IMG/VR virus record: IMGVR_UViG_3300045988_134250
Source of the DNA: a virus
Taxonomy: Duplodnaviria > Heunggongvirae > Uroviricota > Caudoviricetes
Direction: 5' to 3' (one strand)
Length of the DNA: 64,000 bases
Position 1 is the first letter of the stretch; each line of letters opens with the position of its first letter. The position numbers and the translations under genes were made by a program. This document shows, one piece after another, positions 1-62,280 of this stretch. The notes under the pieces are model-generated. The model was not told the DNA's origin, did not search any database, and saw only the letters and a list, made by a program, of their open reading frames with translations.

Positions 1-6
1 CTGTCG

Positions 7-198
7 GTGATTAACCCGGAATCGCTGGTGATCAAACAGGGCTTTGCTGAACCGTCGCTGAAAGATGCGGTTGCGGGTAAAGCATTCCAGTTTGAGCGTG
101 AAGGTTACTTCTGCCTCGATAGCCGCCATTCTACGGCGGAAAAACCGGTATTTAACCGCACCGTTGGGCTGCGTGATACCTGGGCGAAGTTAGGTTAA
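7..198 (+). CDS. glnS: 3' terminal fragment of a glutaminyl-tRNA synthetase-like gene (5' end outside window)
   Basis: 63-aa in-frame tail ...[32 protein letters not shown] matches, from memory, the C-terminal region of enterobacterial GlnS; TAA at 196-198 followed by hairpin terminator. Confidence 0.5.
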
Positions 199-220
199 TA
201 GGTATTTCGCCACATAAAAA

Positions 221-249
221 AGTAAACGCCGCTACTGCGGCGTTTTTTA
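221..249. terminator. Bidirectional rho-independent terminator between convergent glnS fragment and methyltransferase gene
   Basis: Stem aacgccgc(225-232)/gcggcgtt(237-244), loop tact, A-run upstream and T-run 243-248 downstream. Confidence 0.6.
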
Positions 250-2607
250 CTTCATTATTGCAATTATATCGTTAGCAACTACACGTGTTGACGCCTTGCA
301 GGAAACCGACCGTCTGGCTGCCATATGATGTACTTTAAACCCGTTTCCTTCATATAGTTCACGGATGTTTGGCGCACCACTATTTGTTATCACTACCTTA
401 GCGCCGCGCTGGTGGGCTTCCACCAATAGAGATACCAGCCGTTTCTGTTCGTCGAAACGGAAGCTATTTCCTGAATAACTGGTAAACCCTTCTGTATCCG
501 GCAGCGGTTCATACGGCGGATCGCAAAAAATCACATCGCCTTCACCAGCCGCCTCGATGACGCCAGCAAAGTCACCTGATACAAAGGACGTGTTTTTGAG
601 TACGTCATCAGCCAAAAATGCCTCCATCTCTGCATGTGGGAAGTAGGGCGCTTTGTATTTGCCATACCCCACGTTGAACTCGCCATTTTGGTTGTACCGC
701 GTTACGCCATTAAAACAGTGCCGATTAAGGTACAAAAAGGCGGCAGCATGATGTAGCTGGTCATACTTTCCTCTGTTAAATGCCTCACGCACTTCGAGGT
801 AAGCGTCAGCGTTGTTGTAATTTTGGAAAAAACTATATGACAGCGTGACGAGCGAATGTCCTTCTCGCTGCAATGTCTGATAGAAGTTAATCAGGTCACC
901 GTTAATATCATTAAGCAGGTTGTGGCGAAATCCTGCATTCGTAAATACAGAACCGCCACCAACGAACGGTTCTATTAACCGCTTGCCGTGTGGTAGATGC
1001 TCAAGCACTGTAGGCAACTCTGAGAATTTACCGCCTACCCATTTGAAGATCGGACGCTCATATTCATCCGGAGTCCGGAGTTTTCTTGTGTAGGTAATGG
1101 TATTTATTGTTTTTGGCTGTTTAGCTTCCACAGTCGCAAGAATGCGACACCCAATCCATTGCATAACAGGAACTGCCATGCTGTTGCCAATCGCTTTGTA
1201 ACGCGGCCCGTCAGCAGCGAGCATCGCGGCTTCTTCTTCGCTTAAATCTGGATAGTGATTGCGAAGGTATGCCAGTTCATCTGAGGAAATTGTTTTACGC
1301 TTTTCCGTAGGGATCAACGTATGCCCATCAGGAAAACCTTGCAGCCTTTCACATTCGACAGGGGTAAGACGGCGGACAGCTACTTCTGCGTTTCTTACTT
1401 CATAGCAAACGGCTGTTGGATTTTGAGCCATTAGAGATGGTGAAGTATTCTTAGTTGCAGCATGTTGTGTACCGCTCATACGCTCAGGAAAAGCTAATGT
1501 AACAAGATGCTCATGGCTTTCTTGCTCACGTGCCCGCAATGTACCATGCCCTTCTGACCAAAAACCTGCTCCTGTGCTGCTAAAAACGGTAAGGTCAGTG
1601 GCATCTTTAAAATCTCTTGCCTTTACTGTCGATGCGGTTTCATCGTCAATATATTCCCCAAATGCTGCCATCCTGAAAGCGTTTACGGCTTTCGTCGATT
1701 TCATACCGGGTGGAATGTCAGCGTGTAGGCATGGATTTAGGCTTTCGCCACTGATTGCAGCGCCATTTGCAATAATGGCGGAAGCGATTTCCTTCTTTTT
1801 TCGGCTCGGCGCAATATCCCGGCGCACGCCTTCGAACTCAAAAAGTATCGTTGCGGGATCGAGGTCTGTTCGAGCACTTGCGACAACAAACACGCGTCGG
1901 CGTCGTTGTGCCACTCCGAAGTATTGGGCATCAAGGATTCTCCAGGCCACTTTTCGCTGCGGTCCATAAATACAACCACACTGCGGCCACTTTGGAGCAT
2001 GGCAACTGGTTTTGACATCCCACCGCCAGAACGCGTTACTTTTTCGTGATTCAGGTCGAGCACCTGGTTCGAATGGCGCATCTTCTCCAGCCAATCCGGC
2101 AAGGAAACATCCGAAGGCGTTATCTGCCGATGACAAGACTCCTGGGACATTTTCCCAGACGATAACGGCTGGTTTGAGAAATGACTCAGCCCGTTTGTCG
2201 TCAATTGCATTTGCAAGCTCCACATACTTTAAAGTTAGCGCGCCACGCTCATCATCAAGCCCACCACGTAATCCAGCGATACTGAATGCCTGACAAGGTG
2301 TTCCCCCGACGAGCACATCAGGGGATTCGATTTCCCCAGCCAGGACTTTTTTGGCAAGTTTTGTCATATCGCCAAGGTTGGCGATATGGGGCCAGCGGTG
2401 CGCAAGAACGGCAGATGGAAAAGGCTCGATTTCAGCAAACCACGCCGGACGCATACCCAACGGTTCCCAGGCAATGCTCGCTGCTTCAATTCCACTGCAA
2501 ACTGAACCATATCTAAGGTTAACGTTCTGCTTCACCGCCAATGGCCTCCACCAGCGCGTTAAACAGTGCAGATAATTCGCCCGTAAAGAGCACGAAATCA
2601 GCATCAA
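247..2607 (-). CDS. dmt: Bifunctional DNA methyltransferase: N-terminal C5-cytosine MTase domain fused to C-terminal Dam-type N6-adenine MTase domain
   Basis: 786-aa ORF; C5-MTase motifs [22 protein letters not shown] (PCQ), [21 protein letters not shown] in N-terminal two thirds; Dam motifs [20 protein letters not shown] in C-terminal third. Track start 2607 is TTG and overlaps the upstream gene; real start probably ATG 2604 or GTG 2535. Confidence 0.8.
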
Positions 2608-3424
2608 ATCGTTGTGCTACATCCTCCCGGTCGATATCGTCGTTCTGGTCATAGAGATCATCACAGAATGTCAGGGCTTTGATACTCATATCATCGTTGA
2701 CTCTGAACGACGCGCGGTCCATCCAGTTAATTGCAACGGTCGTAGCTACTTTCCCCGCCTCAATGTGAGACATAATCTCGTCGGACTGTAGATCAACTTT
2801 GTTGCAGCGAACGGCACCACCATTATCGAGCAGACCCTTTAATGTGGCGTCTTCACCTGCTGTAAATCCGGCAGGGAAGCCGTTTTTAAACCACTCGGTC
2901 ATTGTAATTTCCAGCGGTTCGCGTGGTGTGAATGGAATGACAGGCAGGCTGCCGAGCGATTTTCGCAATAAAGCCAGCTGGTCCTCTGCCTTTTTGGCGC
3001 TGCTTGCCTCAACGAATACCAGATGGTTGCTGCGGTCGATCAGGATTTTGGCGAGTGATTTTCTCGTGAAAGCACGAGGAAGAAGAGAGTGAAGCACTTC
3101 ATCCTTCAGCGAATCTTTTTCGGTCTTCTTCAGCTTTCTGTCTTGCTCTTCTTCAAGTGTCAGGATTTTTTTCTGTAACTCTTCTTTGAGCACTTGAGAA
3201 GGTAGGATTTTTTCCTCTCGTTTATGCTGTATCAGAAGAAAACCCTGGTATTCATGGGTGAGGTTGTCACCAAGAACGGAGGTCCAACCAGCTTTAGCCA
3301 TATCCTGAGAACCGCATGGGGTAAACACAAACTTGCTAAGGGCTGCATTTACTTCTGCAGTATCCCAGCTAACTTCGCGTGAAAGACGATAGATGAAGAT
3401 ATTTTTGAAAGCGACTGATCTCAT
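2519..3424 (-). CDS. rdgC: RdgC-like recombination-associated protein
   Basis: 301 aa, length and N-terminus (...[11 protein letters not shown]...) resemble E. coli RdgC (303 aa, MLWFKNLMVYRL... as recalled); P1 carries an rdgC homolog (hrdC) next to dmt; ATG at 3424 with RBS ggtgag. Confidence 0.7.
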
Positions 3425-3430
3425 GTCTCA

Positions 3431-3475
3431 CCATTTGTGTTAGAAAATACATATTAATTATCTAACACAAATGGG
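3431..3475. promoter_or_regulatory. 45-bp palindrome containing two inverted copies of the TTTTCTAACA motif (candidate double operator) abutting the rdgC-like RBS
   Basis: ccatttgtgttagaaaatac atat taattatctaacacaaatgg; arms are reverse complements with one mismatch. Confidence 0.5.
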
Positions 3476-3483
3476 TGCATTTT

Positions 3484-4137
3484 CTATCCTTTCTTGAAAT
3501 CGAAGTTGCCAGCAGTGGCCTGAAAGGTTCCTCCTGCCTTGAAAGCTATGTCTCCGTTAGCGGTGACAGCAATATTTTCCCCTTTAACATTGATGTTGTT
3601 GGTTGATTTGACGTTAACACTCCCTCCTGCATTCACGATTACATCAGCCGGACCAATGATATATATCTGCCCGGACTCATTCATGCCAATCCTTGAGCCT
3701 GCTGCCGTATTGGCAATTTCATAGCCGCCACCAGCAGTTCGTACTTCAAGAATATTGTTGCGGTGAATAACGAAGTCTTTCGTTGCTGAGATTTGGGGGC
3801 GGGGAGGTGCTCCATCTACTTCCGGCGGCGTCCAGCCGTTGCCTTTGCCAGATGCTTCTGGTGCAACGTTTGGAATTCCTCCCGGTGCATCCTGAGCGGC
3901 ACCAACTATCATTGGGCGTCTGGTGTCTATTCGACCGTTAACATCTAAATAAGGAAACTCTACCCAGACCAGGTCACCTTTGACTGTGGGTACAAAAGCG
4001 TTTCCGATGGGTAACAGGTATTCCGCCCAGGGTAGATCGTCATCAGGAACGCCATTCCAGTCAGGTAAAACACGGACTTGAGCACGCATAAGCCCTGCCG
4101 GGTGCACAGTTCCAACAATTTGCGCTCTACGCTTCAT
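3484..4137 (-). CDS. Hypothetical protein with Gly-rich beta-strand repeats (function unknown)
   Basis: 217-aa ORF, 4-nt overlap with upstream ORF (coupling), same operon as rdgC-like/dmt. Confidence 0.5.
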   Translation of the reverse strand: MKRRAQIVGTVHPAGLMRAQVRVLPDWNGVPDDDLPWAEYLLPIGNAFVPTVKGDLVWVEFPYLDVNGRIDTRRPMIVGAAQDAPGGIPNVAPEASGKGNGWTPPEVDGAPPRPQISATKDFVIHRNNILEVRTAGGGYEIANTAAGSRIGMNESGQIYIIGPADVIVNAGGSVNVKSTNNINVKGENIAVTANGDIAFKAGGTFQATAGNFDFKKG

Positions 4138-8026: not shown

Positions 8027-8806
8027 ATGAGTACAGATTCATCAGTAAAGAAGACATCTGAATCAGATAAAGAAAATGAGTCCGTTGTTGATTCCGTCAA
8101 GAATACAATGGAATATGTTATAAAAGATAAAGTATTTAATAAGCTTTTTGCATATATTTTTATATCTTTTCTGGTTGTTAACTGGAGAGATATATTAATT
8201 TTGTTCAAATCAAAAGAAGATGTTCTATATACTCTGTCAATAGTTTTTACCGGTGAAAAAATACAATTTCTTGATGGCGAGATTTTACCTCCTTGGTTTG
8301 CCCACTTTTTCTTGCCGTTTTTCTATGGTGTGATTGCGTCGATTGTGGCACCAGTAATTACACTTGCGGTATCTTGCATTACAACTAAGGTGTACTATAA
8401 AATAAAAATTTTGGACAATAAAACAGACGAAAACGAGAAAGAGAAATTAGCAAAAAGAGCCAAGAAAAGAGCTGAGCGTGAAATAGAGGCTAGCTATAGC
8501 CAACAAAAGCTGGATGAAAGAAAAAAAGAACTGGAAGACATTTTAAACAAAATAGAAGATGAAAAAGAAAAATATGATAAAATGAAAGAAAGGTTTGATG
8601 ATGCCATAACGCTTACATATAAAAATATTCACATTTTGCCTACTCTGTATGAGAATAGGAAATGTAAAATTGAAACTCCGCAGGATTTATATGATTTTAT
8701 TGCAGCAATAAAGAAAACATCATTCTATAGTACTGATTTTAATGAATTGTTCTCTGATATTTCTCGATTGTATTCTGAAATGCAAACTGATTTATCAGAA
8801 AAGTGA
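8027..8806 (+). CDS. AT-rich membrane protein with two predicted TM helices and a long charged coiled coil (function unknown)
   Basis: ORF-track 8015..8806 (TTG); first ATG at 8027. Hydrophobic stretches LFAYIFISFLVVNW and FFLPFFYGVIASIVAPVITLAVSCI, then KE-rich heptad region; markedly lower GC than flanks. Confidence 0.55.
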   Translation: MSTDSSVKKTSESDKENESVVDSVKNTMEYVIKDKVFNKLFAYIFISFLVVNWRDILILFKSKEDVLYTLSIVFTGEKIQFLDGEILPPWFAHFFLPFFYGVIASIVAPVITLAVSCITTKVYYKIKILDNKTDENEKEKLAKRAKKRAEREIEASYSQQKLDERKKELEDILNKIEDEKEKYDKMKERFDDAITLTYKNIHILPTLYENRKCKIETPQDLYDFIAAIKKTSFYSTDFNELFSDISRLYSEMQTDLSEK

Positions 8807-11607: not shown

Positions 11608-12231
11608 ATGAAGGACGGTGTAGTGAAGTTAAGGGTTTTAGGGACCGCGCTCGCGGCTATGTTGGGATGCGTATCTGTTAATACAGCCAATGCAACTGCG
11701 TTACCTGCACAATTCAGGGCAGGGCAGCAGGTTATGAATAACGCTGGTGGGGATCATTCACAAGCGGCAATTATGGACTTTTGCAAGAGAGAGGGCATTC
11801 CATTACGGCCTGTTGGAACTCAGTTTATTGGTAAAACTGACTTTTGCGTTTTTGCATATACAGCATATCTGACGGACAAAGCTATAACAAAAACAGGTTA
11901 TTCAACCAAAGATACTCTTTCCAGATTAAGTCAGGGATGGCAGCAATTCGAAGTGTATCGCCAGCAAGGATTAGGTGAGTTATTACAACCACTTTTTATG
12001 CTTGCGCTGGTGCCCGAGGGGCAGCAATTTTTGGTTAAAAAGGGAATGCTTCGCCAAAGTGATATTGCCGGGTTCGATAGCATGATGGCTTATGAGCGCA
12101 AACTAACCGAGCAGCGAAATAAAAAACCATCTGCTTCATGTGTGCAAAGTAAAACAGCAGAATACAGTGCAGTAGCCGGGCCTTTAGCCAAACAAATGGC
12201 AGAGCAATGGTGTAAAAAATACGGGCAATAA
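11608..12231 (+). CDS. Secreted/periplasmic protein of unknown function
   Basis: 207 aa; N-terminal signal peptide ...LGTALAAMLGCVSVNTANA with AXA site. Confidence 0.5.
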   Translation: MKDGVVKLRVLGTALAAMLGCVSVNTANATALPAQFRAGQQVMNNAGGDHSQAAIMDFCKREGIPLRPVGTQFIGKTDFCVFAYTAYLTDKAITKTGYSTKDTLSRLSQGWQQFEVYRQQGLGELLQPLFMLALVPEGQQFLVKKGMLRQSDIAGFDSMMAYERKLTEQRNKKPSASCVQSKTAEYSAVAGPLAKQMAEQWCKKYGQ

Positions 12232-12251
12232 GTTACGCAGCGGAGGCAGAA

Positions 12252-12644
12252 TTGAAAAGATTGGCTATTGCTTTACTGGCGTCTTTCCCTTTGATCGCGA
12301 GCGCCGGAAATTTACAAGTTAAGTGCGGTAGGTTTGATATAAAAATCTATCCAGATGCCATATTTCTGAATGGGAATAAGGTTGATAACGCACACCGAAA
12401 AACTGAATCTGACGTAATGAGCTATGTGTTCCAGGAGTATGCGGAGATGGGGGGAACTTACACGCTGTACTCGCTGGATGTTCCTTCTCGCGGTGATATG
12501 ACATTATCCCATCAATGGCAGAACGCCGATGGCGAAGCTCTGCGCGAGGTTAAAACAGAAAAATGTGGCACTTTCCATTCTTTTAAAGGGAAAGCGCCAA
12601 ATGTTAAATCTGTGCTTGAAAAACAGCGCGCAGGTGAGCTTTAA
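12252..12644 (+). CDS. Secreted protein of unknown function
   Basis: 130 aa; signal peptide MKRLAIALLASFPLIASA. Confidence 0.5.
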   Translation: MKRLAIALLASFPLIASAGNLQVKCGRFDIKIYPDAIFLNGNKVDNAHRKTESDVMSYVFQEYAEMGGTYTLYSLDVPSRGDMTLSHQWQNADGEALREVKTEKCGTFHSFKGKAPNVKSVLEKQRAGEL

Positions 12645-12952
12645 ACACCTTTAACCACGGAGATGCCGTTCCCTGCACGATAGCGGCGGGGAACGGAATT
12701 CTCCATCAGGTCACGAATTACTCCCGCCTCATGTAGTTCCTCTGTTTCCCAGTATCTGTTTGTCACCAGATCGAGGCTGGCTATGACCTTGTGCCGGTCA
12801 TTAGGCATAGCCAATTTTTCTGCTATAACCATCAGTGAAAACTCTTCATCCAGTAGGATTTGATACCAGACTTTTGACAGTTCCAACTCTCTAATGAGGG
12901 TGAAGCGCCGCTCAAGTGTGGCGGCAGAATAAGTGAAATCTATTTTTTTCAT
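12641..12952 (-). CDS. Hypothetical protein
   Basis: 103-aa ORF downstream of ant-like gene. Confidence 0.4.
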   Translation of the reverse strand: MKKIDFTYSAATLERRFTLIRELELSKVWYQILLDEEFSLMVIAEKLAMPNDRHKVIASLDLVTNRYWETEELHEAGVIRDLMENSVPRRYRAGNGISVVKGV

Positions 12953-16756: not shown

Positions 16757-17249
16757 AGGTTTAACGCCAGCACAACTGGCAGAGCGTAACGCTGAGTATG
16801 TAACGGAAATTTCCCGACTTGAGAAAGCGTGTGCTGCGCTGGCGGCGGAGAATGCGAGACTGAATGCGATATGTGAGGATCGCCGCACGTTCATTATGAA
16901 TGGCGTGCAGCTTGGCTTTATCAAGGTGCCAACAGTGGAAATAGATCCAGCTCTCGAAACAATTCGTCTCGCCCTATCACCACAAAAAACCACTCCTGCG
17001 ACCGACACTTTCCTGGATGAAGTGAAGACTGAAGCACGCAAGGAGGGCGCTTACTTTGTGGCGAACAGGATGCTGGCTGCTTGGGAAGCTGGTTTTATTG
17101 ATGATACTGCGAAGAACGCCGCGGATATTGCCCGGATGATTCTTACCTCTACTGAGTTTATGGCTAATGCGCGGGAAGGCGATTTTGACCGCTCATTCTC
17201 TGATGGCGTTCTCGAAGATATCGCCGAACAGCTTAGAAAAGGAAGGTAA
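16746..17249 (+). CDS. Coiled-coil protein, member of a paralogous family
   Basis: 167 aa; shares AALAAEN coiled-coil segment and C-terminal ...EGAYFVANRMLAAWEAGFIDD with 21017..21739. Confidence 0.5.
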   Translation: MKSEGLTPAQLAERNAEYVTEISRLEKACAALAAENARLNAICEDRRTFIMNGVQLGFIKVPTVEIDPALETIRLALSPQKTTPATDTFLDEVKTEARKEGAYFVANRMLAAWEAGFIDDTAKNAADIARMILTSTEFMANAREGDFDRSFSDGVLEDIAEQLRKGR

Positions 17250-17252
17250 ACA

Positions 17253-17501
17253 GTGAGTAATACCGCACGACTACAGCTTGGTTTTTCACCGCTATCAAAA
17301 ACCATCGTGTTGGCAAAAATGCGTGACTTAGGGGATGGAACAAAACGTCGTGTTGGCAATGATCGCGGTCGTGATGTAACCAACGAGGCCGCTCAACTCC
17401 TCTGGCATCTGGTCATGGCAGAAGGCGGTGAAATTAATTGGGAGCTGGATGATGGTTCTCGCATGGTATTGAAGGCAGAAAAGCAGGAACCACCACAGTG
17501 A
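17253..17501 (+). CDS. Hypothetical protein
   Basis: 82-aa ORF in tightly packed rightward array. Confidence 0.4.
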   Translation: MSNTARLQLGFSPLSKTIVLAKMRDLGDGTKRRVGNDRGRDVTNEAAQLLWHLVMAEGGEINWELDDGSRMVLKAEKQEPPQ

Positions 17502-20098: not shown

Positions 20099-20392
20099 AT
20101 GAGTCAAGGTAATGGTGACGGAGCTGCAAAGTGCAGAATCTCCACTTGTTTGATTAATGACAAAAAAATAGAACCGTGCGCGGCGTTGGCACAATCTCTG
20201 GAGCAGGATGCTGAATACACGACGCGGAAAGGTCTGCTGAAATACAAAATCTATAACCATGAATTAATTCATTCACAAGACCTGATCATGCTGCGGTCTG
20301 GTGAATTTTCTAAATCGCCTATTCGAGTTTCATTTTGCCCATTCTGTGGTGAAAGTCTGAAAACGTGGGAAGCGGAGGCAACCAGTGAATAA
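20099..20392 (+). CDS. Hypothetical protein
   Basis: 97-aa ORF; CxxC...CxxC pattern (CRISTCL...CPFCG). Confidence 0.4.
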   Translation: MSQGNGDGAAKCRISTCLINDKKIEPCAALAQSLEQDAEYTTRKGLLKYKIYNHELIHSQDLIMLRSGEFSKSPIRVSFCPFCGESLKTWEAEATSE

Positions 20393-21029
20393 CCGCTTTT
20401 ACATGATGTGCTTGCGTGAAACTGTGGGTAATAACGCCTCATTCCATTGCCATAACGGCAATGGTTACAGTTCTGATATCGATCGCGCTCATATTTACAC
20501 GCTGGAAGAAGCCCAAAAAGCCTGGAATTGTGGGCGAGATATCGATCAGCCTGTTTGTGCCGATAGTGTGGATGCAATGGCTGTGTGGCACGTTGATTGC
20601 CAGTACATCCCTACAGAAAGCCTGATTGAGTCAGATTGCACTGAGTATGTGGCCTACAAAAAAGGTAGCTGGAACGGCAACGATGTTTACTGGCTTCAAC
20701 ACGGTGGATTGCCAACAGATGACTTCAGTAAAGCGACCATCTTTAGCTTCGCCAACAAAAACGAACCAGGAATAGTTTGGTTGCCATTTTCCATTGCTGA
20801 TGCAGCAAAGCGCCGGACGTTCAATATCAATAACTTTAACCGCAGAACAATGGTTCAGGGCGCAGGTTTGGTCATGCCTGACTGGTTGAAAGAGCAGAAC
20901 AGAAGAAAGAAGTCGCGAAGCGGGAAGGTGCGTTGGAATTGTCCGCATTGCGGAAAAATAACCTGGCAGTACAGCCCATATGATTTTGAAGGCTGTCGTG
21001 ATTACAACTGTGAAGGATGGCGAGAATGA
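20385..21029 (+). CDS. Hypothetical protein with C-terminal zinc-ribbon-like motif
   Basis: 214 aa; NCPHCGK...GCRDYNCEGW. Confidence 0.45.
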   Translation: MNNRFYMMCLRETVGNNASFHCHNGNGYSSDIDRAHIYTLEEAQKAWNCGRDIDQPVCADSVDAMAVWHVDCQYIPTESLIESDCTEYVAYKKGSWNGNDVYWLQHGGLPTDDFSKATIFSFANKNEPGIVWLPFSIADAAKRRTFNINNFNRRTMVQGAGLVMPDWLKEQNRRKKSRSGKVRWNCPHCGKITWQYSPYDFEGCRDYNCEGWRE

Positions 21030-21739
21030 CAATTGACTATCAGGTACTGCGTGAGGCGGCAGAAAAGGCAACACCAGACGAATGGGTCGCATTTATTTCG
21101 ACGGATACTGGTACTTATGCGGTGCACACGCCCGGTGATGAACGATGTGAAGACGTTATCAAATGGACCGGCTTTGATGGACAGAAAAATGCAGAGAACA
21201 ACGCTCGTTATGTTGCCGCGTTCAACCCAAAGGTTGCACTGGAGCTTCTTGGTGAAATTAAGCGCCTGGAGGACACAAATATTGATGCTATGTGTCGAAT
21301 TGCAGAGCTTGAGACTAATCTCGCGGCGCTGGCGGCGGAGAATGAACTGGCTCGTAAGGCAGTTCAGGCATTCTGCGATGTTGTTGGCGACAACACCGAG
21401 GTTATCGCTGAGGAGGTTGGGCGAGATGGCGTTCTGGTTATTTTGGAGGCCATGAAGGCAACAGGAAATATGCCAGCCACCGATGCTTTTCTGGCTGAAA
21501 TTCGTGCGGAAGCACGCAACGAGGGAGTTAACTATACCGCCAGCCGTCTTGCTGCTGCGTTCAATCACGGATTTATCAATAAGTCTTTGCGTGAAGTTTT
21601 CGACGTTACACGCATGATTTTGTCAGCGAAAGAAGAGTTGGCTAATGAAGCGCATCCGATTGATGGCCTGTCTGGTGAATATGCGGAGAAATCCCTTGAA
21701 GAATGGGCGGAACAGATTCGCAAAGGAGCTGACAAGTGA
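21017..21739 (+). CDS. Coiled-coil protein, paralogous family member
   Basis: 240 aa; N-terminal MTIDYQVLREAAEKATPDEW parallels 22675 gene; AALAAEN segment shared with 16746 and 22143 genes. Confidence 0.5.
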   Translation: MARMTIDYQVLREAAEKATPDEWVAFISTDTGTYAVHTPGDERCEDVIKWTGFDGQKNAENNARYVAAFNPKVALELLGEIKRLEDTNIDAMCRIAELETNLAALAAENELARKAVQAFCDVVGDNTEVIAEEVGRDGVLVILEAMKATGNMPATDAFLAEIRAEARNEGVNYTASRLAAAFNHGFINKSLREVFDVTRMILSAKEELANEAHPIDGLSGEYAEKSLEEWAEQIRKGADK

Positions 21740-22146
21740 AGAAGATGATTTTTATCGCGGCATTGTTGGTGAATATCCAACAAGTGCATGCTTCAGCAGC
21801 TATTGTAGCCTCTACCGCCGCGACTACGGCTGCTGTAGCTGCTGCGAACTCTGCGAATATCGCAAACCAACAGGCACAGCGTGCTGCTAATGCATCAGCC
21901 AGCGTTCACTCAATCACCATTAAGAGCAGTAAGCAAAATCTGGGATTCATAACGTGCGGCACGCGTTCTAATGAAGCTGTAGGTTCACTTGGATGTACGG
22001 TATATGGGGGTAGTGAGAATAGAGAAATTCCATGGAAAACGTGGCCCGGATACGTTCTTGGCTCGAAGCTCCCGGCCAGTTATGAAGTAAACGCCGTATC
22101 GTTTGATCACTATAACGGCGTGGCAACGGTCTATTTTGCATATTGA
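21736..22146 (+). CDS. Secreted protein of unknown function
   Basis: 136 aa; signal peptide MKKMIFIAALLVNIQQVHA. Confidence 0.5.
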   Translation: MKKMIFIAALLVNIQQVHASAAIVASTAATTAAVAAANSANIANQQAQRAANASASVHSITIKSSKQNLGFITCGTRSNEAVGSLGCTVYGGSENREIPWKTWPGYVLGSKLPASYEVNAVSFDHYNGVATVYFAY

Positions 22147-22688
22147 GGCTCCGCATGAAATTCTCCAAATTTTCTGAGTTGGTGAATCGTATTTTGTTGA
22201 ATCGTATTTTGTCCAACAACCACAGCCATCGTCGCGATATGGATGTAACGATCGTTGTTCATTCGCCTGGCAGCATTGGTTCAACACCCTCAGTTGAGGT
22301 TCAGTCAATTCACGCTGGTTTTGATTGGGATTCCGGGAAAGTGCTGATTTTCCCAGCACAGCCACTGACCACTCTAACACCAGAACAGATTACTGATATT
22401 ACTGATAGTGTGCGCAAAGGTCAGTCCTGGCACGCATATCAGGAATACAAGAAGCATAAAGAGCAGTTGGAAAAATTATCGATTGAACTTGATACCGCAA
22501 AACAGCGCATTGCAGAGCTGGAGAGCAATCGCGCGGCGCTGGCGGCGGAGCATGGTATTCAGATTGCAATAAATGAACTGCTTGCTCTGGCCCCGCGTCT
22601 GGATAAACGAGCGGTGGATGCACTCTCTGTGGCTGTGGAGCACCTGTGTAAACTGATTAAGAAGGAGGCAGTCAGTGAGCAAAATTAA
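22143..22688 (+). CDS. Coiled-coil protein, paralogous family member
   Basis: 181 aa; RIAELESNRAALAAEH segment. Confidence 0.45.
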   Translation: MRLRMKFSKFSELVNRILLNRILSNNHSHRRDMDVTIVVHSPGSIGSTPSVEVQSIHAGFDWDSGKVLIFPAQPLTTLTPEQITDITDSVRKGQSWHAYQEYKKHKEQLEKLSIELDTAKQRIAELESNRAALAAEHGIQIAINELLALAPRLDKRAVDALSVAVEHLCKLIKKEAVSEQN

Positions 22689-23313
22689 TTACCAGGCACT
22701 GCGTGAGGCGGCAGAGAAAGCAACGTGGGGAGACTGGGACTCATATAAACCACACCGTGGCGCACGTGGTTATAAGGTCCGACTAAGTGGTCAGGCCATT
22801 GCGCAACACGTTCTGAAAAACAACGCTGAATTTATTGCTGCCTTTAATCCAAAGGTTGCTTTGGCATTACTGGATGAACTGGAAAGAAACCAGCAATACA
22901 TCAAATCTCGCGACCAGGAGAACGAGGATATTGCGCTTACGGTAGGGAAGCTGCTAATCGAAAACGGCCGGCTTGTTGCCGATACGCTACGCCACTTAGC
23001 TGATAACGAAATCGACTCTGATTATTTTGCTATCACCTCAACGAATGAGAACGGTACTGAAATTGATCATGAGATGGCTATTACCGATTACGCACTGCAA
23101 GCTGCCGGAACTGTAGACGAATTGGTTGCGGCGTTGGAATCCGCAGAGAAGCGCATTGCAGAACTGGAAGCACGGGAAATATCGCTCCCAGAACGTAGCA
23201 GCATGCTTCATCGAACAGATTTTCACGAGGATTACCAAACGGTAATGGCATACAAAGTTTCTGAAGTCATCGATGCAATCCGCGCTACTGGCATTCGCAT
23301 CAAAGGAGAGTGA
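22675..23313 (+). CDS. Hypothetical protein, paralogous family member
   Basis: 212 aa; N-terminal MSKINYQALREAAEKATWGDW. Confidence 0.45.
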   Translation: MSKINYQALREAAEKATWGDWDSYKPHRGARGYKVRLSGQAIAQHVLKNNAEFIAAFNPKVALALLDELERNQQYIKSRDQENEDIALTVGKLLIENGRLVADTLRHLADNEIDSDYFAITSTNENGTEIDHEMAITDYALQAAGTVDELVAALESAEKRIAELEAREISLPERSSMLHRTDFHEDYQTVMAYKVSEVIDAIRATGIRIKGE

Positions 23314-23314
23314 G

Positions 23315-23725: not shown

Positions 23726-23726
23726 T

Positions 23727-23990: not shown

Positions 23991-24000
23991 GGAGTAACAC

Positions 24001-26615: not shown

Positions 26616-26823
26616 GCATCTCTCCCCTTTGAGGTCACAATTAGTGGCCTTAAACAATGTGTTTTCTACCTCGATTTAGCCTTTATTATCGTTTTGCATT
26701 TCTCTAATCCGGGCAACGAGGTTACGCTGATTCGTTGGTGATGAATAGTAGCAAAGCGCACAAAATCATCTGCGGTGGTTGATGTACGTAACGCGTTTGC
26801 ACCAAATGTGTCTCTTTAATGTA

Positions 26824-28519: not shown

Positions 28520-28520
28520 A

Positions 28521-28552: not shown

Positions 28553-28554
28553 TA

Positions 28555-34737: not shown

Positions 34738-36246
34738 TTATATATCCAGATCCGGCATTTCGATATCCGCCAGAACCTGATCTCGGAAAGTTGCCATTTC
34801 GGCACCAATATCTTCATTAGCAGGCACATAGTCCACCAGCATAGTGAAGCAGTAGGTATCCCATCGGTCAGGCGATTTGATGTTTAGCTTTTGCCGCATG
34901 TGCTCTTTGCGCATCATCGCCATTTTCCCTTCTTCATTCAGTAAAAAGGGGATTTTTGACGCTTGCTCTGCCGTTTTAGGGTCACTGTCTATCCGCATAC
35001 GCCCTGACTTTATGGCATCTCGCGCCATAATATTTGCGTAGGCACGCTGATTAACAAATCGCTCCCTGTCTTTGTTCGCAAACATGGGTTTTCCCCACCG
35101 AATACGTACCGGGTTCGCACCACGACGCACCAACTGCGCACACGTATCAGAACCAAAACCATCAGCATCAACCGCGATTGTTATATTCGGGTATTTTTCC
35201 GGCGTACATTCGTTATATATGAAGTCAGCAAAGGCCAATGGGTCCATAGTGCCAGGCATCTCCATTACCTTAAAGTTAACAACGCGCCGCTTATCCCTGT
35301 GACCTGATACCTTGCAGATGTTGAGGACCGACTTATCTCGCCCATTACCAACGTCAGCCGTTGCCACCCATCCCCAGTTTTTCTCCAACAACACCTTGCG
35401 GCGAGCAGAGCGATCGCATTCATCACGACCAAGCAAATAGCCGTTAATTTCTCGTGGGAACTGACCAAGCACCTTGACCATGTACTCAATAGAATCGCGC
35501 CCACCATATTCCAGAAGCTTCTCCTTGATGAATTGTGGTGTGACGAACGGTGATTCTTCCGAGTTAAGAACAATTGCTGTCCAGATCCCTTTCGGGTTGT
35601 CTGGGGTTTTTGCTCGAGAATGGTGCGAATCGTAGAAATAACCACTTGGCCTTGTTGGCTGGGATAGCATCAACATCCGGTTATCTTCTTCAGTAAGAGC
35701 ACCGGTCATTACGCCGATCGCCTTATCAGATATACCAGATGCTTCATCCAGAATTAGAAGCAAATGTGCCGCGTGTTCCCCCGCCAGCGCTTCTTCGTTG
35801 CCGAGTCGATAACCTTTGCAGAGAACTTCCCAAATCCCCTTACGGGAGCGCTCATAAAACATGGTGTCAGAGAGGACAAAATAGGTCTGCAACCACCCAT
35901 GACGCTTAACTGCATTCGCCCAATACTGTTTAACGTATTTGAATACGCCTGTTTTTACCTGGCCTATCTTGTTAGCAACAATGATGACACGGGCATCGGG
36001 GAACAGGATCATAAAAATCAACAGCAACATCGCGGTAAGGGACGACTTCCCCGTTCCGTGTCCGGACGTGACGGTCGTCCTACTCCCCGTTTCCTGCACT
36101 GACTGAATGATCTGCTGCTGCTGGTGGGAGGGGAACATCCCAAAAATATCGACTACAGCCTGGGTAAAGTTGTAGCGGTATTTGATTACCATATCGCGCC
36201 AGCGTGGATCGCTGGTGACGCATTTAATCTTGCGCCCGCCAGCCAT
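34738..36246 (-). CDS. pacB: Terminase large subunit (PacB-like)
   Basis: 502 aa; Walker A TSGHGTGKSS, Walker B LLLILDEAS; start overlaps pacA stop. Confidence 0.8.
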   Translation of the reverse strand: MAGGRKIKCVTSDPRWRDMVIKYRYNFTQAVVDIFGMFPSHQQQQIIQSVQETGSRTTVTSGHGTGKSSLTAMLLLIFMILFPDARVIIVANKIGQVKTGVFKYVKQYWANAVKRHGWLQTYFVLSDTMFYERSRKGIWEVLCKGYRLGNEEALAGEHAAHLLLILDEASGISDKAIGVMTGALTEEDNRMLMLSQPTRPSGYFYDSHHSRAKTPDNPKGIWTAIVLNSEESPFVTPQFIKEKLLEYGGRDSIEYMVKVLGQFPREINGYLLGRDECDRSARRKVLLEKNWGWVATADVGNGRDKSVLNICKVSGHRDKRRVVNFKVMEMPGTMDPLAFADFIYNECTPEKYPNITIAVDADGFGSDTCAQLVRRGANPVRIRWGKPMFANKDRERFVNQRAYANIMARDAIKSGRMRIDSDPKTAEQASKIPFLLNEEGKMAMMRKEHMRQKLNIKSPDRWDTYCFTMLVDYVPANEDIGAEMATFRDQVLADIEMPDLDI

Positions 36247-37610
36247 TAATCATCCTCCGGCGGTTCTATCGCGATATCATCATCTCCGGCGTCATACCCT
36301 GCATCAGATGCATCATAATCACCGTAAATTTCAGCCGTTGCCGAAGGGTCAATATCCAGCTCTTCGTCGTTGGCCTCGAATTCTCCAGCTTTACGCTCGC
36401 CATTGCGGTCGTAATCTCCGCACCCCAATTCTTCAACAATGGTTGCCACATCCGCCCGGCGCTCTGCCAGCCATTGCGGATGGTTAGCCTGAAGCGTTGC
36501 AAACTCCCTTGCCTCTTTGTCCAGCTGTTCATCATCAACATCATTGACGTCAGAAACAGGTGGTTCGAGAAGAGTGATAGCTTTCGCCGCGCGCGCCGCG
36601 AGGATAGCCGGGACGCTGACACCCTGGCGCTCGATGTATTCAGCAACACCGATATCATCCAGTTCCTCGCGCTCACGCATACGTATAGCGGCGGCGATAA
36701 CTCTGGCTGCGCGTGCGTCAGCGCCAATGCGATATTCAATCTCTTTGCCACGCTGTTCGGCCTGTAGGCGTGCTAATTCGAGTTTTTCTCTGGCCTCAGC
36801 CTCTTTGAATGCTTGCTGGCGAGCGCTCTGACGAAGCTTTTCATCCCCCTGTCGCAGCTTTTGTTCGGACTGATATATAGCTGCCAACCTACTGATAAAA
36901 TCATTCATGTAGTAGGCCGCGTCACTGATTAGACCGAGAAGGCGCTGCCCAGGGTGCATTCCTTCTGGCTCTTTATCGCCCAAGGCGTCTATTTCCGCCT
37001 GTAGACGTTCGGCCTCCTGATCAACAATGCTTTGATACTGAAGTGCGCGCTCTTGCGCCATTTGAATTGCTAACCGCAGGTGTTCTTCTGCGCCGTTCTT
37101 CATCATATCGCGAGCCACATTCGTAGTTGGCAATGTGGCACGCTGCACAGCACCGTCAGGGATCATTGCAGAAGATCCCTCAATTTTTGGGGCGTTTTTA
37201 TCTTCTTCGGGGATCATTTTCGCCATTTTTTCGCGCAATGATCTCCTGACAGATTCTTTTATCTCATTGTTATTATTTGAATTATTTTCATGATCCGAAG
37301 TTTTCTTTCTCGGCATACTTCGGAAAGAACCTGCGCCCTGCGAATTGTCAATTTCTGTAAATTTTGTTTTTTCTGCACCCTCTTCCAGCTTTTTTGTTGC
37401 TCTTCCCGCCCGTTTTTTTTCAGGTGATTTGGTGCTTTTTTTTGTTGTCTTTACCTGCGACCGCACCTCATTTTTTTTCATATTGAGATGCTTTCTGGCT
37501 GTATTGAAGCTAAGGCCATGCTCCTCACAGTATTCCTTTACAGTGATCCCTTTTTCTTCACGCAACGCTATAAAGCGGGCGCGGTGCTCCTCCCAATTAA
37601 CCAGACTCAT
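36246..37610 (-). CDS. pacA: Terminase small/pac-recognition subunit (PacA-like)
   Basis: 454 aa; N-terminal HTH ITVKEYCEEHGLSFNTARKHL, central coiled coil, acidic C-terminus; coupled to pacB; GATC cluster inside 5' third. Confidence 0.65.
   Translation of the reverse strand: MSLVNWEEHRARFIALREEKGITVKEYCEEHGLSFNTARKHLNMKKNEVRSQVKTTKKSTKSPEKKRAGRATKKLEEGAEKTKFTEIDNSQGAGSFRSMPRKKTSDHENNSNNNNEIKESVRRSLREKMAKMIPEEDKNAPKIEGSSAMIPDGAVQRATLPTTNVARDMMKNGAEEHLRLAIQMAQERALQYQSIVDQEAERLQAEIDALGDKEPEGMHPGQRLLGLISDAAYYMNDFISRLAAIYQSEQKLRQGDEKLRQSARQQAFKEAEAREKLELARLQAEQRGKEIEYRIGADARAARVIAAAIRMREREELDDIGVAEYIERQGVSVPAILAARAAKAITLLEPPVSDVNDVDDEQLDKEAREFATLQANHPQWLAERRADVATIVEELGCGDYDRNGERKAGEFEANDEELDIDPSATAEIYGDYDASDAGYDAGDDDIAIEPPEDD
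37155..37300. other. Candidate pac site (cluster of Dam GATC hexamers inside pacA)
   Basis: Five GATC in ~135 bp (37161, 37174, 37212, 37240, 37292), four within TGATC; P1 pac lies within pacA and consists of clustered TGATCA/G elements. Confidence 0.45.
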
Positions 37611-58645: not shown

Positions 58646-58657
58646 ATCGATTCAACG

Positions 58658-58955: not shown

Positions 58956-59249
58956 TCAATTCACATCAATGTCTTGATATGATTCGCCAGTATCGTCTTC
59001 GTCGTCAGGATCTCCTTCCACCTCTGGCCACTCAACCTCCCAGCCAACAGTTTCCAGGCTCCGCAGAACAAACACCCCATCGGCATGAATGGTATTCACG
59101 ATCCCCATTGCGGAATTTGTGTTGATAAAGCGTAAATCTTGCGCAATATTTTCTTCCGAAATATCGCCTTCAAATATACGCAATGTGCCGTCATCAGAGC
59201 ATTCAACAATCCCTCTAATCCCAGCGGGACTCACAATGCTATACTTCAT
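58956..59249 (-). CDS. Hypothetical acidic protein
   Basis: 97 aa, D/E-rich C-terminus; overlaps upstream gene by 11 nt. Confidence 0.4.
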   Translation of the reverse strand: MKYSIVSPAGIRGIVECSDDGTLRIFEGDISEENIAQDLRFINTNSAMGIVNTIHADGVFVLRSLETVGWEVEWPEVEGDPDDEDDTGESYQDIDVN

Positions 59250-62200
59250 TTTGCAACTCCTTCATACATCCCAAGAAAAATTCCAGCACGCCGTCATTGT
59301 TTAATACAGAGTTAGTCGCCTGCTCCGGATCGGCATACATCTGCAAGGCCATAGAAAAAATCTCAGTCGCCCTGCAATTGCTTAATGCAGGTGGCTTTGA
59401 TATAAATCTGCCGCTGACAGAACTTACCGTATTTTCCATATAAATTTTAGACATATATCCATGACTTAGGTCGGTTCGCACCAAATACTCAGCACTGCCA
59501 CGGCTACCAATATTATGATAAGAAACTTTACCGTTAGTTTTTGATTTAATGAAGGCTTTGGCCCTCTCCAATAGATGGGGATTTGAATGTTCTATATGGT
59601 GACCTATTTCATGCCATAATACACGCTCGTGATCACTATTAGCATCAATTGTTATATTCCCATTTCGACTTGCAAAAGCACGAACATTGTTCTTGTGGTT
59701 AATATTTTTTAATGTAGATAAAGTCCCTCCTGAAATAATATAGGCTTTTTCAATCGTCTCGCGAATACTGTATGCTTTACGGGAGAAAGTTTCATTATCG
59801 TGACCACTTAACTGCTCTGCTTCATCAGAAATAGCAATCCCACGACTCCATTCCTTAGACTGGTCATGTGACACATTTGACGATTCAAGAATCATGTCAA
59901 ATGCGGCTCTGACTTTTTTATGTACTACATTTTCAAGCGCATTAGGATAGGCTTTTTGTCCACGTGTTAATGAAGCTATTTCATATAGTTCTGCTTGCAA
60001 GTCTTCCGGTATGTCCAGATTAAAAACAAGCATTTTTTTCAGATCATATCCAATCCCATGATCATTCTGGTGCAAAACCTCAGCAAGGTAGTCAGTGAGT
60101 TTTTCCTTATTTGACCTAACTTTATTGATTTGTTCTATAGTAAAGTCAACACGCTCCTTGATTCCGTAATATGAGGAATGCTCTGCTAATTCCACTATCT
60201 CCTTAAGCCTGACAAGTGTCTCAATATACGCATCAGCGATCTCCTCTGCCGTTAGTTCAGAGCTAACTCCGACACTGGCTGTTATTTTCCTACCAGCCGC
60301 CATAATATCGTCGATATTATGCAAGCTCTTTTTGAATAACTTCAAAGTATTTTGGATTATGCACACCATCTCTTCTGCGCTTCCAGCTTTATTCATTTCC
60401 TTTCTAAATCTTAAAGCTGTTTTCTCTGCAATAGACGCTGGAGATTTTAAATAGTTACCTAACCAAACAAGACAACCATTGCGCAATTCATCAATACTAA
60501 AGTCATCAGGAATATGTTTTGCTGCATTATGTAAAACACGTATAAATTGTTCAGCGGGCACGCCTTCTTCTGATATGTTGCAAAACGTTTCAATATCACA
60601 ATCAATATTTCTTTCATCTGCGAGCGAAGGAGCTTCATCTCCTTTTTCAATCGCGTCACGCAGTGCGTTAGCATAAAAATTGCTGCGTTGATAAGACAAT
60701 AACATCGTTGTTAACACAGCGTCGCTGTATCCATAACGTTTAGCCCACTCCTTAATCTCATTAACGGTGACATTGCGAATATAAAAACCAAGTTCCAAAA
60801 ATACATTGCGCTTTATTTTTTTTGCGGACTCCTTAATTTTTTCTGACACCTTCACGATTCGGATCAAGTCCTCCACGCTGGTCGCATCAGCAATTAGCTT
60901 TGAAATGTATGGTTCGACCTCTCCTGAAACCGATTCAAACATGGCGAAATTAAGCCCTTTACCTTCGCCATACTCAGCCTCAATTTCATCAGAAACGGCA
61001 GATAAAATGCTACGCAGATCGACATCTCCGCCGCCGAACATATCGCCTAACGCTTGTTGCTGGTGAATAAGTTCATCGTTAATTTTTTGCGCCAGTTTCT
61101 TGAAAGCTGCCCCCATTCGCTTAGCGCTTCGGTTGTTGGCAACAATAAACAGAGCAAGCGCTTCTGCTTCCGGAGTGCTATCTCCAAACAATCCACGCTG
61201 TGCGATCACCTCTTCTACTGCCTGACCGTTATCTTTTGCTTCACGAACAAGGTTAATTGCTTCCTGTAGCGCGGCAATAGCCTGTTTATCCAGACCATTC
61301 AATTGCTCTATACCGTCTACCAGTCCGGTTACCGTGTCATGGTGAACATCACCTGAAAGCGACTGCATTTGCGCAAAATCGCTGGCTGCCGTATTTAATG
61401 CGGTAAGAATGTTACGCATTTCCGGATCTGGCTCTTCCGCCACCAGCCGAACAAGCCTTTCATCCTTGTACGCTTTGGCAAAAATTGCATTCTGGATGCG
61501 GTCGATAAGTTGTTTCGTTGGACGCCCATCGGCAGTAAGCAAACCTGCCGTCGCCGTATCACCTATTTCGCGCAAAAACGCACGAATAAACGCATCATTG
61601 GACCGCGCCAGTAGATTTCCATCATCTGAAGGATTAAATAGCGCCATGACGCTCTCAGTGAGAAATTGCGCATCCGCATACGCTTTTTCACTTGCAGCCA
61701 TCTCTTGCAGATCGCTGATGTTTGAATCGCGGGCAAATTGTGCGCGGTCTACATCTGTGAGTCTTTCTCGCACCAATACGGGCATAGACATTTGTGAAAT
61801 GTCGTCAGGATTCAGACCAAACTCTTTTGCATGATCGATCAGGTACTGGCGATATTCATCCGCCTGCCCTTGCTCATAGGCACGCCAGATACCCATGCTC
61901 CTTCCGTTGCCGGATTCAACAACGTTGTCCGGACCAACTATCGGCGCTCCGTGGCTGCTCATGCCGGAATCCGTTAATTGTGCCGGGCGTAAATTGGAGG
62001 CAATACGGTTAACCTGGAGTTTGCTTGATAGCCGTGTACGGTCACGTGGCTGGAGTTCTTCCGGGAAGGCCGGATTAATCGTACCGTCAAGGTTGTTCGA
62101 AATGATCAGACTGCTGGCATCAACGACCTTAAAAGCCGTCTTTACCTCTGCCCCTTTACTGGTGACTACGTAACTACTGCGCCCCTGGCGTGTTTCTCGC

Positions 62201-62280
62201 CTCTCTAATGAAGAAACCAGCGCAATAACACTGTTAATGTCTGCTGCTTCGGATAGCGCGGAAGTAACTGACTTGTTCAA
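59239..62280 (-). CDS. Large virion-associated-type protein with C-terminal HExxH zinc-metallopeptidase motif (DdrB-like by size and context)
   Basis: 1013 aa; HEIGHH near C-terminus; in operon with small and mid-size upstream genes, resembling the P1 dar/ddr operon layout. Confidence 0.45.
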   Translation of the reverse strand: MNKSVTSALSEAADINSVIALVSSLERRETRQGRSSYVVTSKGAEVKTAFKVVDASSLIISNNLDGTINPAFPEELQPRDRTRLSSKLQVNRIASNLRPAQLTDSGMSSHGAPIVGPDNVVESGNGRSMGIWRAYEQGQADEYRQYLIDHAKEFGLNPDDISQMSMPVLVRERLTDVDRAQFARDSNISDLQEMAASEKAYADAQFLTESVMALFNPSDDGNLLARSNDAFIRAFLREIGDTATAGLLTADGRPTKQLIDRIQNAIFAKAYKDERLVRLVAEEPDPEMRNILTALNTAASDFAQMQSLSGDVHHDTVTGLVDGIEQLNGLDKQAIAALQEAINLVREAKDNGQAVEEVIAQRGLFGDSTPEAEALALFIVANNRSAKRMGAAFKKLAQKINDELIHQQQALGDMFGGGDVDLRSILSAVSDEIEAEYGEGKGLNFAMFESVSGEVEPYISKLIADATSVEDLIRIVKVSEKIKESAKKIKRNVFLELGFYIRNVTVNEIKEWAKRYGYSDAVLTTMLLSYQRSNFYANALRDAIEKGDEAPSLADERNIDCDIETFCNISEEGVPAEQFIRVLHNAAKHIPDDFSIDELRNGCLVWLGNYLKSPASIAEKTALRFRKEMNKAGSAEEMVCIIQNTLKLFKKSLHNIDDIMAAGRKITASVGVSSELTAEEIADAYIETLVRLKEIVELAEHSSYYGIKERVDFTIEQINKVRSNKEKLTDYLAEVLHQNDHGIGYDLKKMLVFNLDIPEDLQAELYEIASLTRGQKAYPNALENVVHKKVRAAFDMILESSNVSHDQSKEWSRGIAISDEAEQLSGHDNETFSRKAYSIRETIEKAYIISGGTLSTLKNINHKNNVRAFASRNGNITIDANSDHERVLWHEIGHHIEHSNPHLLERAKAFIKSKTNGKVSYHNIGSRGSAEYLVRTDLSHGYMSKIYMENTVSSVSGRFISKPPALSNCRATEIFSMALQMYADPEQATNSVLNNDGVLEFFLGCMKELQNEV

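Follow-up and report, generated by a model that had tools for sequence, protein, structure and literature searches.

A P1 Dmt-type gene for a two-domain C5-cytosine and Dam-type DNA methyltransferase in a D6-like plasmid prophage

We analysed a 64,000-nt stretch of DNA (henceforth referred to as the window), which is a phage-D6-like, P1-family plasmid prophage; the phage origin assumed in a first-pass annotation made from the sequence alone was borne out by colinearity with phage D6. The locus described here contains the methyltransferase gene dmt, its upstream neighbour hrdC and several short elements within or next to them:

224..245, no strand: bidirectional intrinsic-terminator-like hairpin with a 9-bp stem (6 GC) and T-runs on both strands (scan)
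247..2535, minus: dmt coding sequence, ortholog of phage P1 Dmt, 762 aa plus stop (ORF, identity to P1 Dmt, public proteins)
2519..3424, minus: hrdC, RdgC family, its stop overlapped by the dmt start (PF04381, 6e-103; P1 annotation)
2545..2549, minus: Shine-Dalgarno sequence GGAGG within the 3' end of hrdC, 9 nt before the GTG start (sequence read directly)
3431..3474, no strand: inverted repeat (arms of 18 nt, 94% complementary; spacer of 8 nt) within the 59-nt gap that precedes hrdC

The first-pass annotation had described a 786-aa ORF, with no strand given, and had called its start codon ambiguous. The frame is a single, uninterrupted one on the minus strand (247..2607, counted from the most upstream TTG) and the ambiguity was genuine: 786 aa is correct for the maximal ORF but not for the product, whose supported length is 762 aa. 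The start is now settled as the GTG at 2535-2533 (minus strand), given the GGAGG located 9 nt upstream, the dozens of public gene calls that use this start (762 aa), and the GTG starts annotated for P1 dmt and for the D6 gene D6_64, both of which match its position. It overlaps the hrdC stop (TAA 2521-2519) by 17 nt, and a match to phrog_116 covers aa 2-761 of the product. The pairing with an RdgC homolog held up, as the upstream neighbour is a PF04381 protein, and the 17-nt overlap together with the operon annotation in P1 suggests that hrdC and dmt are co-transcribed.

From short motifs, the same annotation had read the product as a C5-cytosine methyltransferase followed by a Dam-type domain, and had named a profile search as the way to check it. 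That search matched both DNA_methylase (PF00145) and MethyltransfD12 (PF02086), with NCBIfam profiles likewise matching both families within one polypeptide; each of the motifs PCQ, ENV, QRRRR and RLQGFPD of the first domain, and KWVGGK, FVGGGSV and DPPY of the second, was located by translation. The resulting architecture, in which all motif positions were obtained by translation, is as follows:

1129..2535, minus: C5-cytosine methyltransferase half, aa 1-469 (PF00145, TIGR00675, AF2 core, translation)
2476-2511, minus: C5 motif I (AdoMet)
2281-2307, minus: C5 motif IV, PCQ with the catalytic Cys (GGTPCQAFS)
2140-2154, minus: C5 motif VI, ENVPG
1888-1908, minus: C5 motif VIII, QRRRRVF
1378..1800, minus: variable region for target recognition, aa 246-386, flanked by motifs VIII and IX (length classes, module assortment)
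within 1378..1800, minus: four cassettes, A1 (aa 246-285), M2 (286-317), M3 (318-345) and A4 (350-379)
1324-1374, minus: C5 motif IX, with RLQGFPD inside
1165-1194, minus: C5 motif X (GN)
1060..1128, minus: inter-domain linker, aa 470-492 (between the Pfam domains)
250..1059, minus: Dam-type (D12 class) N6-adenine methyltransferase half, aa 493-762 (PF02086, TIGR00571, E. coli Dam alignment)
1027-1047, minus: Dam motif FKWVGGK
946-972, minus: Dam motif EPFVGGGSV
511-522, minus: Dam motif DPPY

The Dam-type half matched PF02086 over profile positions 1-252 of 253 (ORF aa 523-767; E=2.1e-55, 188.6 bits) and TIGR00571 (dam) with 245.9 bits (cut-off 114.85), and scored 237 bits against the host Dam equivalog NF008152, below its cut-off of 441. 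By these profile scores it is a Dam-family member rather than the host E. coli Dam equivalog. It aligned over its whole length with E. coli Dam (PDB 2G1P, 4GBE; E=1.4e-57), and it has the D12-class fold and motifs in common with both E. coli Dam and T4 Dam, from which Dmt differs by its fused C5 domain. In the alignment, K9, N120, R124 and Y138 of EcoDam, which we take to be DNA-contact residues in EcoDam-DNA structures, are conserved, while L122 is replaced by V and P134 by G (P1 Dmt, which is reported to methylate GATC, also has Gly at the P134 position but retains Leu at the L122 position). The Dam half may likewise be specific for GATC.

In P1, Dam activity methylates GATC at the packaging site pac; packaging depends on this, so that the phage cannot do without dmt in Dam- hosts (PMC12707154). 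CRISPRi knock-down nevertheless scored P1 dmt as non-essential in a Dam+ host (PMC10695390), meaning that P1 can dispense with either activity in the laboratory. A GATC scan of the window detected one comparable region:

37161..37330, minus: cluster of 5 GATC sites in the 5' part of a pacA homolog (36246..37610, minus)

Nowhere else in the window do 170 bp contain 4 or more GATC sites, although a Poisson estimate gives about one cluster of such density by chance in 64 kb. The cluster occupies a position comparable to that of pac in P1, which has 4+3 TGATCA/G repeats; this is suggestive only, and we consider the cluster a candidate Dam-regulated pac site that could be a substrate of the Dam half.

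The C5 half matched PF00145 (E=1.2e-36, 127.3 bits; cut-off 22) in two stretches with the variable region between them, and TIGR00675 (dcm) with 119.8 bits (cut-off 100.65). Motifs I, IV, VI, VIII, IX and X are all present in canonical order (motif I as the SGIEAAS variant common to the whole Dmt family), and the C5 and Dam motifs are invariant across 15 relatives. A full-length AF2 model built with 15 close homologs was discarded (mean pLDDT 32). In a model of the C5 half, pLDDT exceeded 90 in the core and was 37-70 in the target-recognition region, and the best Foldseek matches were M.HhaI and M.HaeIII (probability 1.00, target-normalised TM 0.58). The core is hence predicted to adopt an M.HhaI-like two-lobe fold, with low confidence for the target-recognition lobe; in that lobe confidence was too low for the model to show whether the cassettes form lobes of their own. 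In some relatives an intein is placed exactly before the catalytic Cys81. This position, and the exchange of cassettes around a fixed core described below, would be consistent with a functional C5 catalytic core, while neither proves it.

The region between motifs VIII and IX falls into length classes of 97, 118, 141, 233 and 249 aa among otherwise near-identical proteins. Every cassette within it is about 30-40 aa long and has an x-[T/S/C]-[L/V]-x-A core, and the number of modules ranges from a single one in the shortest relatives to about seven, with four in the window (A1-M2-M3-A4). Across 150 diverse representatives of the family, modules assort independently and their order is permuted. 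Homology among the cassettes as repeats could not be demonstrated: profile searches with iteration found no significant match of one cassette to another, and BLAST self-comparison only weak ones (E 0.26-0.63). The variable region had no match among PDB sequences even at E=10, so a specificity cannot be transferred to it. There is a resemblance in module architecture to the multispecific C5-methyltransferases of Bacillus phages (SPR, phi3T, rho11s, H2), which are likewise phage-borne orphans with a constant catalytic core and a variable region of short exchangeable modules; Dmt differs from them by its additional, fused Dam domain. One tentative reading, which we consider possible but would not yet favour, is that in P1/D6-type phage-plasmids Dmt has a multispecific C5 half, carrying tandem autonomous target-recognizing cassettes that are shuffled among enterobacterial phages, such that with the fused Dam a single protein would shield the genome against several restriction specificities.

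The window gene is an ortholog of the known P1 Dmt (P1_gp069, YP_006537.1, 754 aa, Punavirus P1), to which it has 84% amino-acid identity (ORF aa 31-785 vs. P1 aa 4-753). P1 Dmt likewise has a C5 domain followed by a Dam domain, a GTG start, and hrdC upstream with a stop/start overlap, and proteins of this type are also found in P7, SJ46, JL22 and RCS47. A bifunctional Dmt is therefore already known: the GenBank note to the P1 protein calls it a 'bifunctional DNA methyltransferase' that acts on N6 of adenine in GATC and 'perhaps' on C5 of cytosine, and the exact protein encoded in the window is public.

The relationship to P1 is uneven along the locus. In the C5 half, DNA identity to P1 is about 96% and the 141-aa target-recognition cassette set is the same, with 92-100% DNA identity to P1 dmt over window positions 2494-1193. 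In 60-nt windows, by contrast, DNA identity to P1 is 42-85% in the Dam half and 37-72% in hrdC. The upstream context also differs from that of P1, given that hrdC in the window follows tail/baseplate genes and the palindrome, and there is no uhr gene. Phage D6 (MF356679) has the same genomic slot (glnS, methyltransferase gene or genes, hrdC, baseplate), and its flanks are 99.3-99.6% identical to those of the window, including the Dam half (99.3% DNA identity to D6_63) and the first codons ('MKQN'); hrdC DNA is 100% D6-type. The linker stretch 1078-1150 resembles neither phage. Judged by these identities, dmt of the window is a mosaic, its P1-type C5 half lying between a D6-type hrdC and a D6-type Dam half.

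D6 itself carries two separate, overlapping ORFs in this slot, namely D6_63, a 301-aa Dam, and D6_64, a 226-aa cytosine-methyltransferase-like gene that is unrelated to the P1-type C5 domain (no Pfam or NCBIfam match; phrog_757). Together with a P1 study in which dmt-A and dmt-B are given as separate targets, this raises the question of whether the two activities are made as separate proteins in the window as well, the long ORF either reflecting an error in sequencing or assembly or being skipped through the use of an internal start. We find this hardly credible, since the ORF is continuous, at least 58 independent contigs have gene calls for exactly this 762-aa product (P0001 plus P0002; close variants occur on many more), and the same fusion exists in P1 and in about ten 50%-identity clusters. 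An internal start is further disfavoured by a linker that contains no Met and by the start of the D6 Dam, which sits in D6-specific sequence absent from the window.

A different alternative concerns the C5 half of the fused protein, which could be a vestigial or inactive passenger, such that only the Dam half matters and the protein is in effect a phage Dam with an N-terminal extension. The NCBI pipeline names it only 'Dam family ...' (some records, in turn, mislabel it as 'multidrug DMT transporter permease'). GATC methylation is the sole experimentally grounded function of P1 dmt that we found (PMC12707154; PMC10695390), and the literature searched yielded no experimental report of C5 activity or of a C5 target for P1 Dmt. 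Moreover, the reference laboratory P1 grows normally although Trp replaces the first, conserved Gly of its motif IV. The window allele, however, has the canonical Gly77 (Gly-Gly of motif IV) and all its catalytic motifs are intact; Gly occupies this position in 114 of 122 family proteins, Trp was seen only in laboratory P1, and the pattern was not found in the other 7. In addition, a near-invariant core around an actively shuffled target-recognition region is what one would expect of a working enzyme that diversifies its specificity, not of a decaying domain. We thus consider an inactive C5 half improbable. As a corollary of the tentative multispecific reading, the Gly-to-Trp change may have crippled the C5 half of laboratory P1, the Gly allele of the window then being the active form; if true, this could explain why C5 activity went unreported.

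In the neighbourhood of dmt we found no adjacent endonuclease gene, its neighbours being the convergent phage glnS, from which the 224..245 hairpin separates the dmt stop, and hrdC with the baseplate genes. A restriction-modification system was rejected on these grounds, and the product is an orphan methyltransferase with no partner endonuclease. The inverted repeat upstream of hrdC overlaps a weak sigma-70-like match and is possibly an operator or an RNA hairpin for the hrdC-dmt unit; further copies of its arm sequence in the window do not exceed the chance level, so the palindrome is not a recognisable multi-copy operator. A scan of the window for the P1 C1 operator consensus ATTGCTCTAATAAATTT, allowing up to 3 mismatches, found no site and so gave no support to C1-type control; the site bound by the D6 repressor may differ from the P1 C1 operator.

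Taken as a whole, we put at roughly 88% the probability that this locus is the dmt gene of a D6-like, P1-family plasmid prophage, encoding an orphan, two-domain C5 and Dam methyltransferase. Translation would begin at the GTG within the end of hrdC. The C-terminal, Dam-type domain would then methylate N6 of adenine in GATC which, as in P1, would permit cleavage at pac for headful packaging and free the phage from any need for host Dam, besides blocking MboI/DpnII-type restriction. The N-terminal domain would be a catalytically intact C5-cytosine methyltransferase that derives its specificity from the cassette-built target-recognition region and that most likely acts on one or several short sequences, thereby allowing Type II restriction to be evaded in new hosts. 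Domain content, intact motifs, orthology to P1 Dmt, mosaic origin and the modular build of the variable region are established by the analysis, while GATC specificity, C5 activity, its target or targets, co-transcription with hrdC and the biological roles of both halves are inferred. The first-pass suggestion that a dual methylase shields the genome from multiple restriction systems is plausible as regards the C5 half, whereas the role documented for the Dam activity of P1 lies in packaging. A C5 activity need not always protect, as m5C can also expose DNA to McrBC/McrA-type restriction.

Of 5,426 complete E. coli genomes, about 570 carry related DNA, in nearly every case on a plasmid. The practical value of the finding is annotational, in that the NCBI 'Dam family ...' name hides the C5 half. 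Among carriers of resistance genes in E. coli and Salmonella, P1-like phage-plasmids are common; if the cassette-array reading is true, they would carry a rapidly re-assortable, multi-target anti-restriction methylase, which would have a bearing on the host range of phage-plasmids and on P1 as a delivery vector.

The interval 247..2607 (-) is a single uninterrupted ORF, and Pfam and NCBIfam each placed both methyltransferase (MTase) families in its product. Specifically, Pfam detected a C5 DNA methylase (PF00145, E=1.2e-36, in two stretches) and a full-length D12-class N6-adenine MTase (PF02086, E=2.1e-55), while the NCBIfam scores exceeded the curated cut-offs for both dcm (TIGR00675; 119.8 vs. 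100.65) and dam (TIGR00571; 245.9 vs. 114.85). The protein scored below the cut-off of the NCBIfam E. coli Dam equivalog model (237 vs. 441), and the PHROG family phrog_116 spans the fused protein in its entirety. Given these matches, and given that translation placed all of the motifs quoted in the first-pass annotation within the ORF, its two-domain observation is confirmed far above chance and its two-domain interpretation is supported. The RdgC homologue that it had placed beside the methyltransferase was also found (Pfam, E=6e-103), directly upstream and on the same strand.

Features at and around dmt
1-198 (+): inside the glutaminyl-tRNA synthetase gene glnS, which continues upstream of the window (ORF 7..198 is the gene end)
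224-245: strong bidirectional terminator right after dmt
247..2535 (-): dmt
2519..3424 (-): hrdC, RdgC family
3431-3474: near-perfect inverted repeat (18-nt arms, 8-nt spacer)
3484..4137: baseplate gene

The 786 aa reported earlier hold for the maximal ORF, counted from the most upstream TTG, but not for the protein: the supported start, an in-frame GTG at 2535-2533 with GGAGG 9 nt upstream (2549-2545), gives 762 aa. As had been noted, this start does overlap the end of hrdC (stop codon TAA at 2521-2519); the overlap is 17 nt, and the start need no longer be called ambiguous. Independent gene calls with the same GTG exist for dozens of public entries whose length is exactly 762 aa (97–100% identical to ours), the annotated GTG starts of phage P1 dmt ('VKELCYGS') and of D6_64 in the P1-family plasmid prophage D6 ('VKQND...') match its position, and translation from the next in-frame ATG would lose motif I. 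Considering the overlap, the Shine–Dalgarno sequence inside hrdC, the lack of a convincing terminator between the genes and the strong one after dmt, a single transcript is probably the template for translation of both hrdC and dmt. The phage-plasmid glnS (a homologue of D6_62, L001:2338-3999 in the D6 locus; DNA 99% identical) is convergent with dmt and uses the same terminator. The inverted repeat sits in the 59-nt gap between hrdC and the baseplate gene, overlaps a weak sigma-70-like match and has no further copies in the window; it has no T-run and is thus not a classic terminator, being possibly an operator or RNA hairpin.

Across its whole length the protein is 84% identical to P1 Dmt, recorded as a 'bifunctional DNA methyltransferase' acting on N6 adenine in GATC and 'perhaps' on C5 cytosine. 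As in the window, P1 dmt directly follows the RdgC homologue hrdC with overlapping stop and start. Among PLSDB plasmids, 603 have DNA akin to window 200-3500, as do 569 of the 5,426 complete E. coli genomes (almost always on plasmids). The window is colinear with the circular phage D6 genome at 94–99% identity, across the D6 rox junction. Judged by sequence, the gene is therefore the known Dmt of a D6-like phage-plasmid and an orthologue of P1 Dmt; an identical protein is already in public databases. Some NCBI records (P0025, P0036) label the same protein 'multidrug DMT transporter permease', apparently through a mix-up with the gene symbol, and the standard PGAP name ('Dam family ...') leaves out the C5 domain. 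Segments without a megablast match to D6 were 8045-8733, 11660-12728, 16856-17495, 20389-24672 (which includes two Ead/Ea22-like genes), 25784-26791, 28477-29665 and 58212-60934; the 1013-aa protein at 59239..62280 (-) has a DdrB-like ParB domain and is much longer than D6_25.

Sliding identity to P1 and D6 divided the hrdC-dmt region into four mosaic segments.

Mosaic segments of the hrdC-dmt region
hrdC and first few dmt codons: D6-type, 98–100% identity
About 2494-1193, virtually all of the C5 half: P1-type, unlike D6, 88–100% identity
About 1150-1078, linker: resembles neither P1 nor D6
From 1077 down (Dam half, terminator, glnS): D6-type, 95–100% identity

Where the window has one fused gene, D6 has two separate, overlapping genes, encoding a 301-aa Dam and a 226-aa cytosine-MTase-like protein which matched phrog_757 only, with no Pfam or NCBIfam match. 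The latter ORF (L001:4946-5626 (-), equivalent to window 1078-2518; motifs FTGAM, FPPCTD and ENP) is too short for a standard C5-MTase. This arrangement implies that the slot preceding the Dam module can exchange its content, and that fused and split forms are both natural. A colinear fused version (90–95.5% identity) was found on about 20 plasmids.

The Dam half can be aligned over its full extent with the sequences of E. coli Dam crystal structures (E=1.4e-57). Among the residues that contact DNA in EcoDam-DNA structures, K9, N120, R124 and Y138 are conserved, while L122 is replaced by Val and P134 by Gly. P1 Dmt, the enzyme credited with GATC methylation, shares this Gly but keeps the Leu. 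By anatomy and by analogy with P1, the window's Dam half would methylate GATC. In P1, GATC methylation at the pac site is required for packaging and dmt is essential in Dam- hosts (PMC12707154), and its knock-down is tolerated in a Dam+ host (PMC10695390). GATC sites are densely clustered at just one place in the 64-kb window, 37161-37330, with 5 sites in 170 bp, near chance expectation by number alone; this cluster lies inside a pacA homologue (36246..37610 (-)), at a position comparable to that of the Dam-regulated pac site of P1, which has 4+3 TGATCA/G repeats.

The C5 half contains motifs I, IV (GGTPCQ), VI (ENV), VIII (QRRRR), IX and X, all invariant among relatives. In the AF2 model of aa 1-490, for which 92 diverse family representatives were used, core pLDDT exceeded 90 and the stretch from motif VIII to motif IX was poorly modelled; the best PDB matches of the model were M.HhaI and M.HaeIII. 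No endonuclease gene was found among the genes adjacent to dmt, making the C5 half an orphan MTase, which most plausibly would shield phage DNA from Type II restriction in new hosts. A literature search found no published demonstration of Dmt C5 activity.

Codon 74 of lab P1 dmt (L002:4155-4157 in the P1 locus) is TGG (Trp), as opposed to GGG (Gly) at window 2305-2307. This Trp, replacing the first Gly of motif IV (GGxPCQ), occurs in the reference lab P1 records alone (AF234172, AF234173, NC_005856) and may impair their C5 half; Gly occupies this position in JL22 and SJ46 as well as in the window, and in 114 of the 122 family proteins (the other 7 gave no match to the pattern). In many relatives, motif IV is interrupted by an intein of about 340 aa, made up of Hint alone or of Hint plus a LAGLIDADG domain. 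Its insertion point lies precisely between Pro80 and the catalytic Cys81, and Cys81 is the +1 extein residue ('...GGTP|CFTAGH...VVHN|CQAFS'). Examples are P0109 (1095 aa, from a cluster of 3,523 sequences), P0095, P0122, P0148, P0153, P0157, P0203 and P0261; phages RCS47 and vB_EcoM-Ro157c2YLVW have a matching insertion of about 1 kb.

In a set of 122 close family members, the catalytic core hardly varies, nor does the Dam half, and the segment after 'GVRRxIAPxR' falls into discrete length classes (97, 118, 141, 233 and 249 aa, with 141 aa for both the window and P1) that have blocks in common in differing combinations.

Blocks of the window variable region, with their cores
A1: aa 246-285, PCLHA
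M2: aa 286-317, STVKA
M3: aa 318-345, GTLRA
A4: aa 350-379, PSLMA

Every core has the form x-[T/S/C]-[L/V]-x-A, the cores are spaced about 30–35 residues apart, and the variable region is about 20-fold richer in TL-type cores than the remainder of the proteins. Together, the blocks might form a single composite recognition domain. We surveyed them by profile searches in the wider C5 family, which comprises 4,453 clusters at E<=1e-30, using 150 representatives from clustering at no more than 50% identity.

Block combinations among the 150 representatives
M2 only: 32 proteins
A4 only: 17 proteins
M3 only: 15 proteins
M2-M3: 3 proteins
M3-M2 (reverse order): 2 proteins
M2-A4: 2 proteins

The shortest family members have one module only (about 35–60 aa). 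Such independent assortment is as expected of autonomous target-recognising domains, and we hypothesise that the blocks are domains of this kind; the C5 half may be multispecific.

Finally, 11 of the 150 nearest representatives fuse the C5 core to a Dam domain (some being fragments or intein-bearing copies of Dmt), and in one case among the relatives the partner is an MT-A70 adenine MTase. Dual cytosine/adenine methylases are thus a recurrent phage design.
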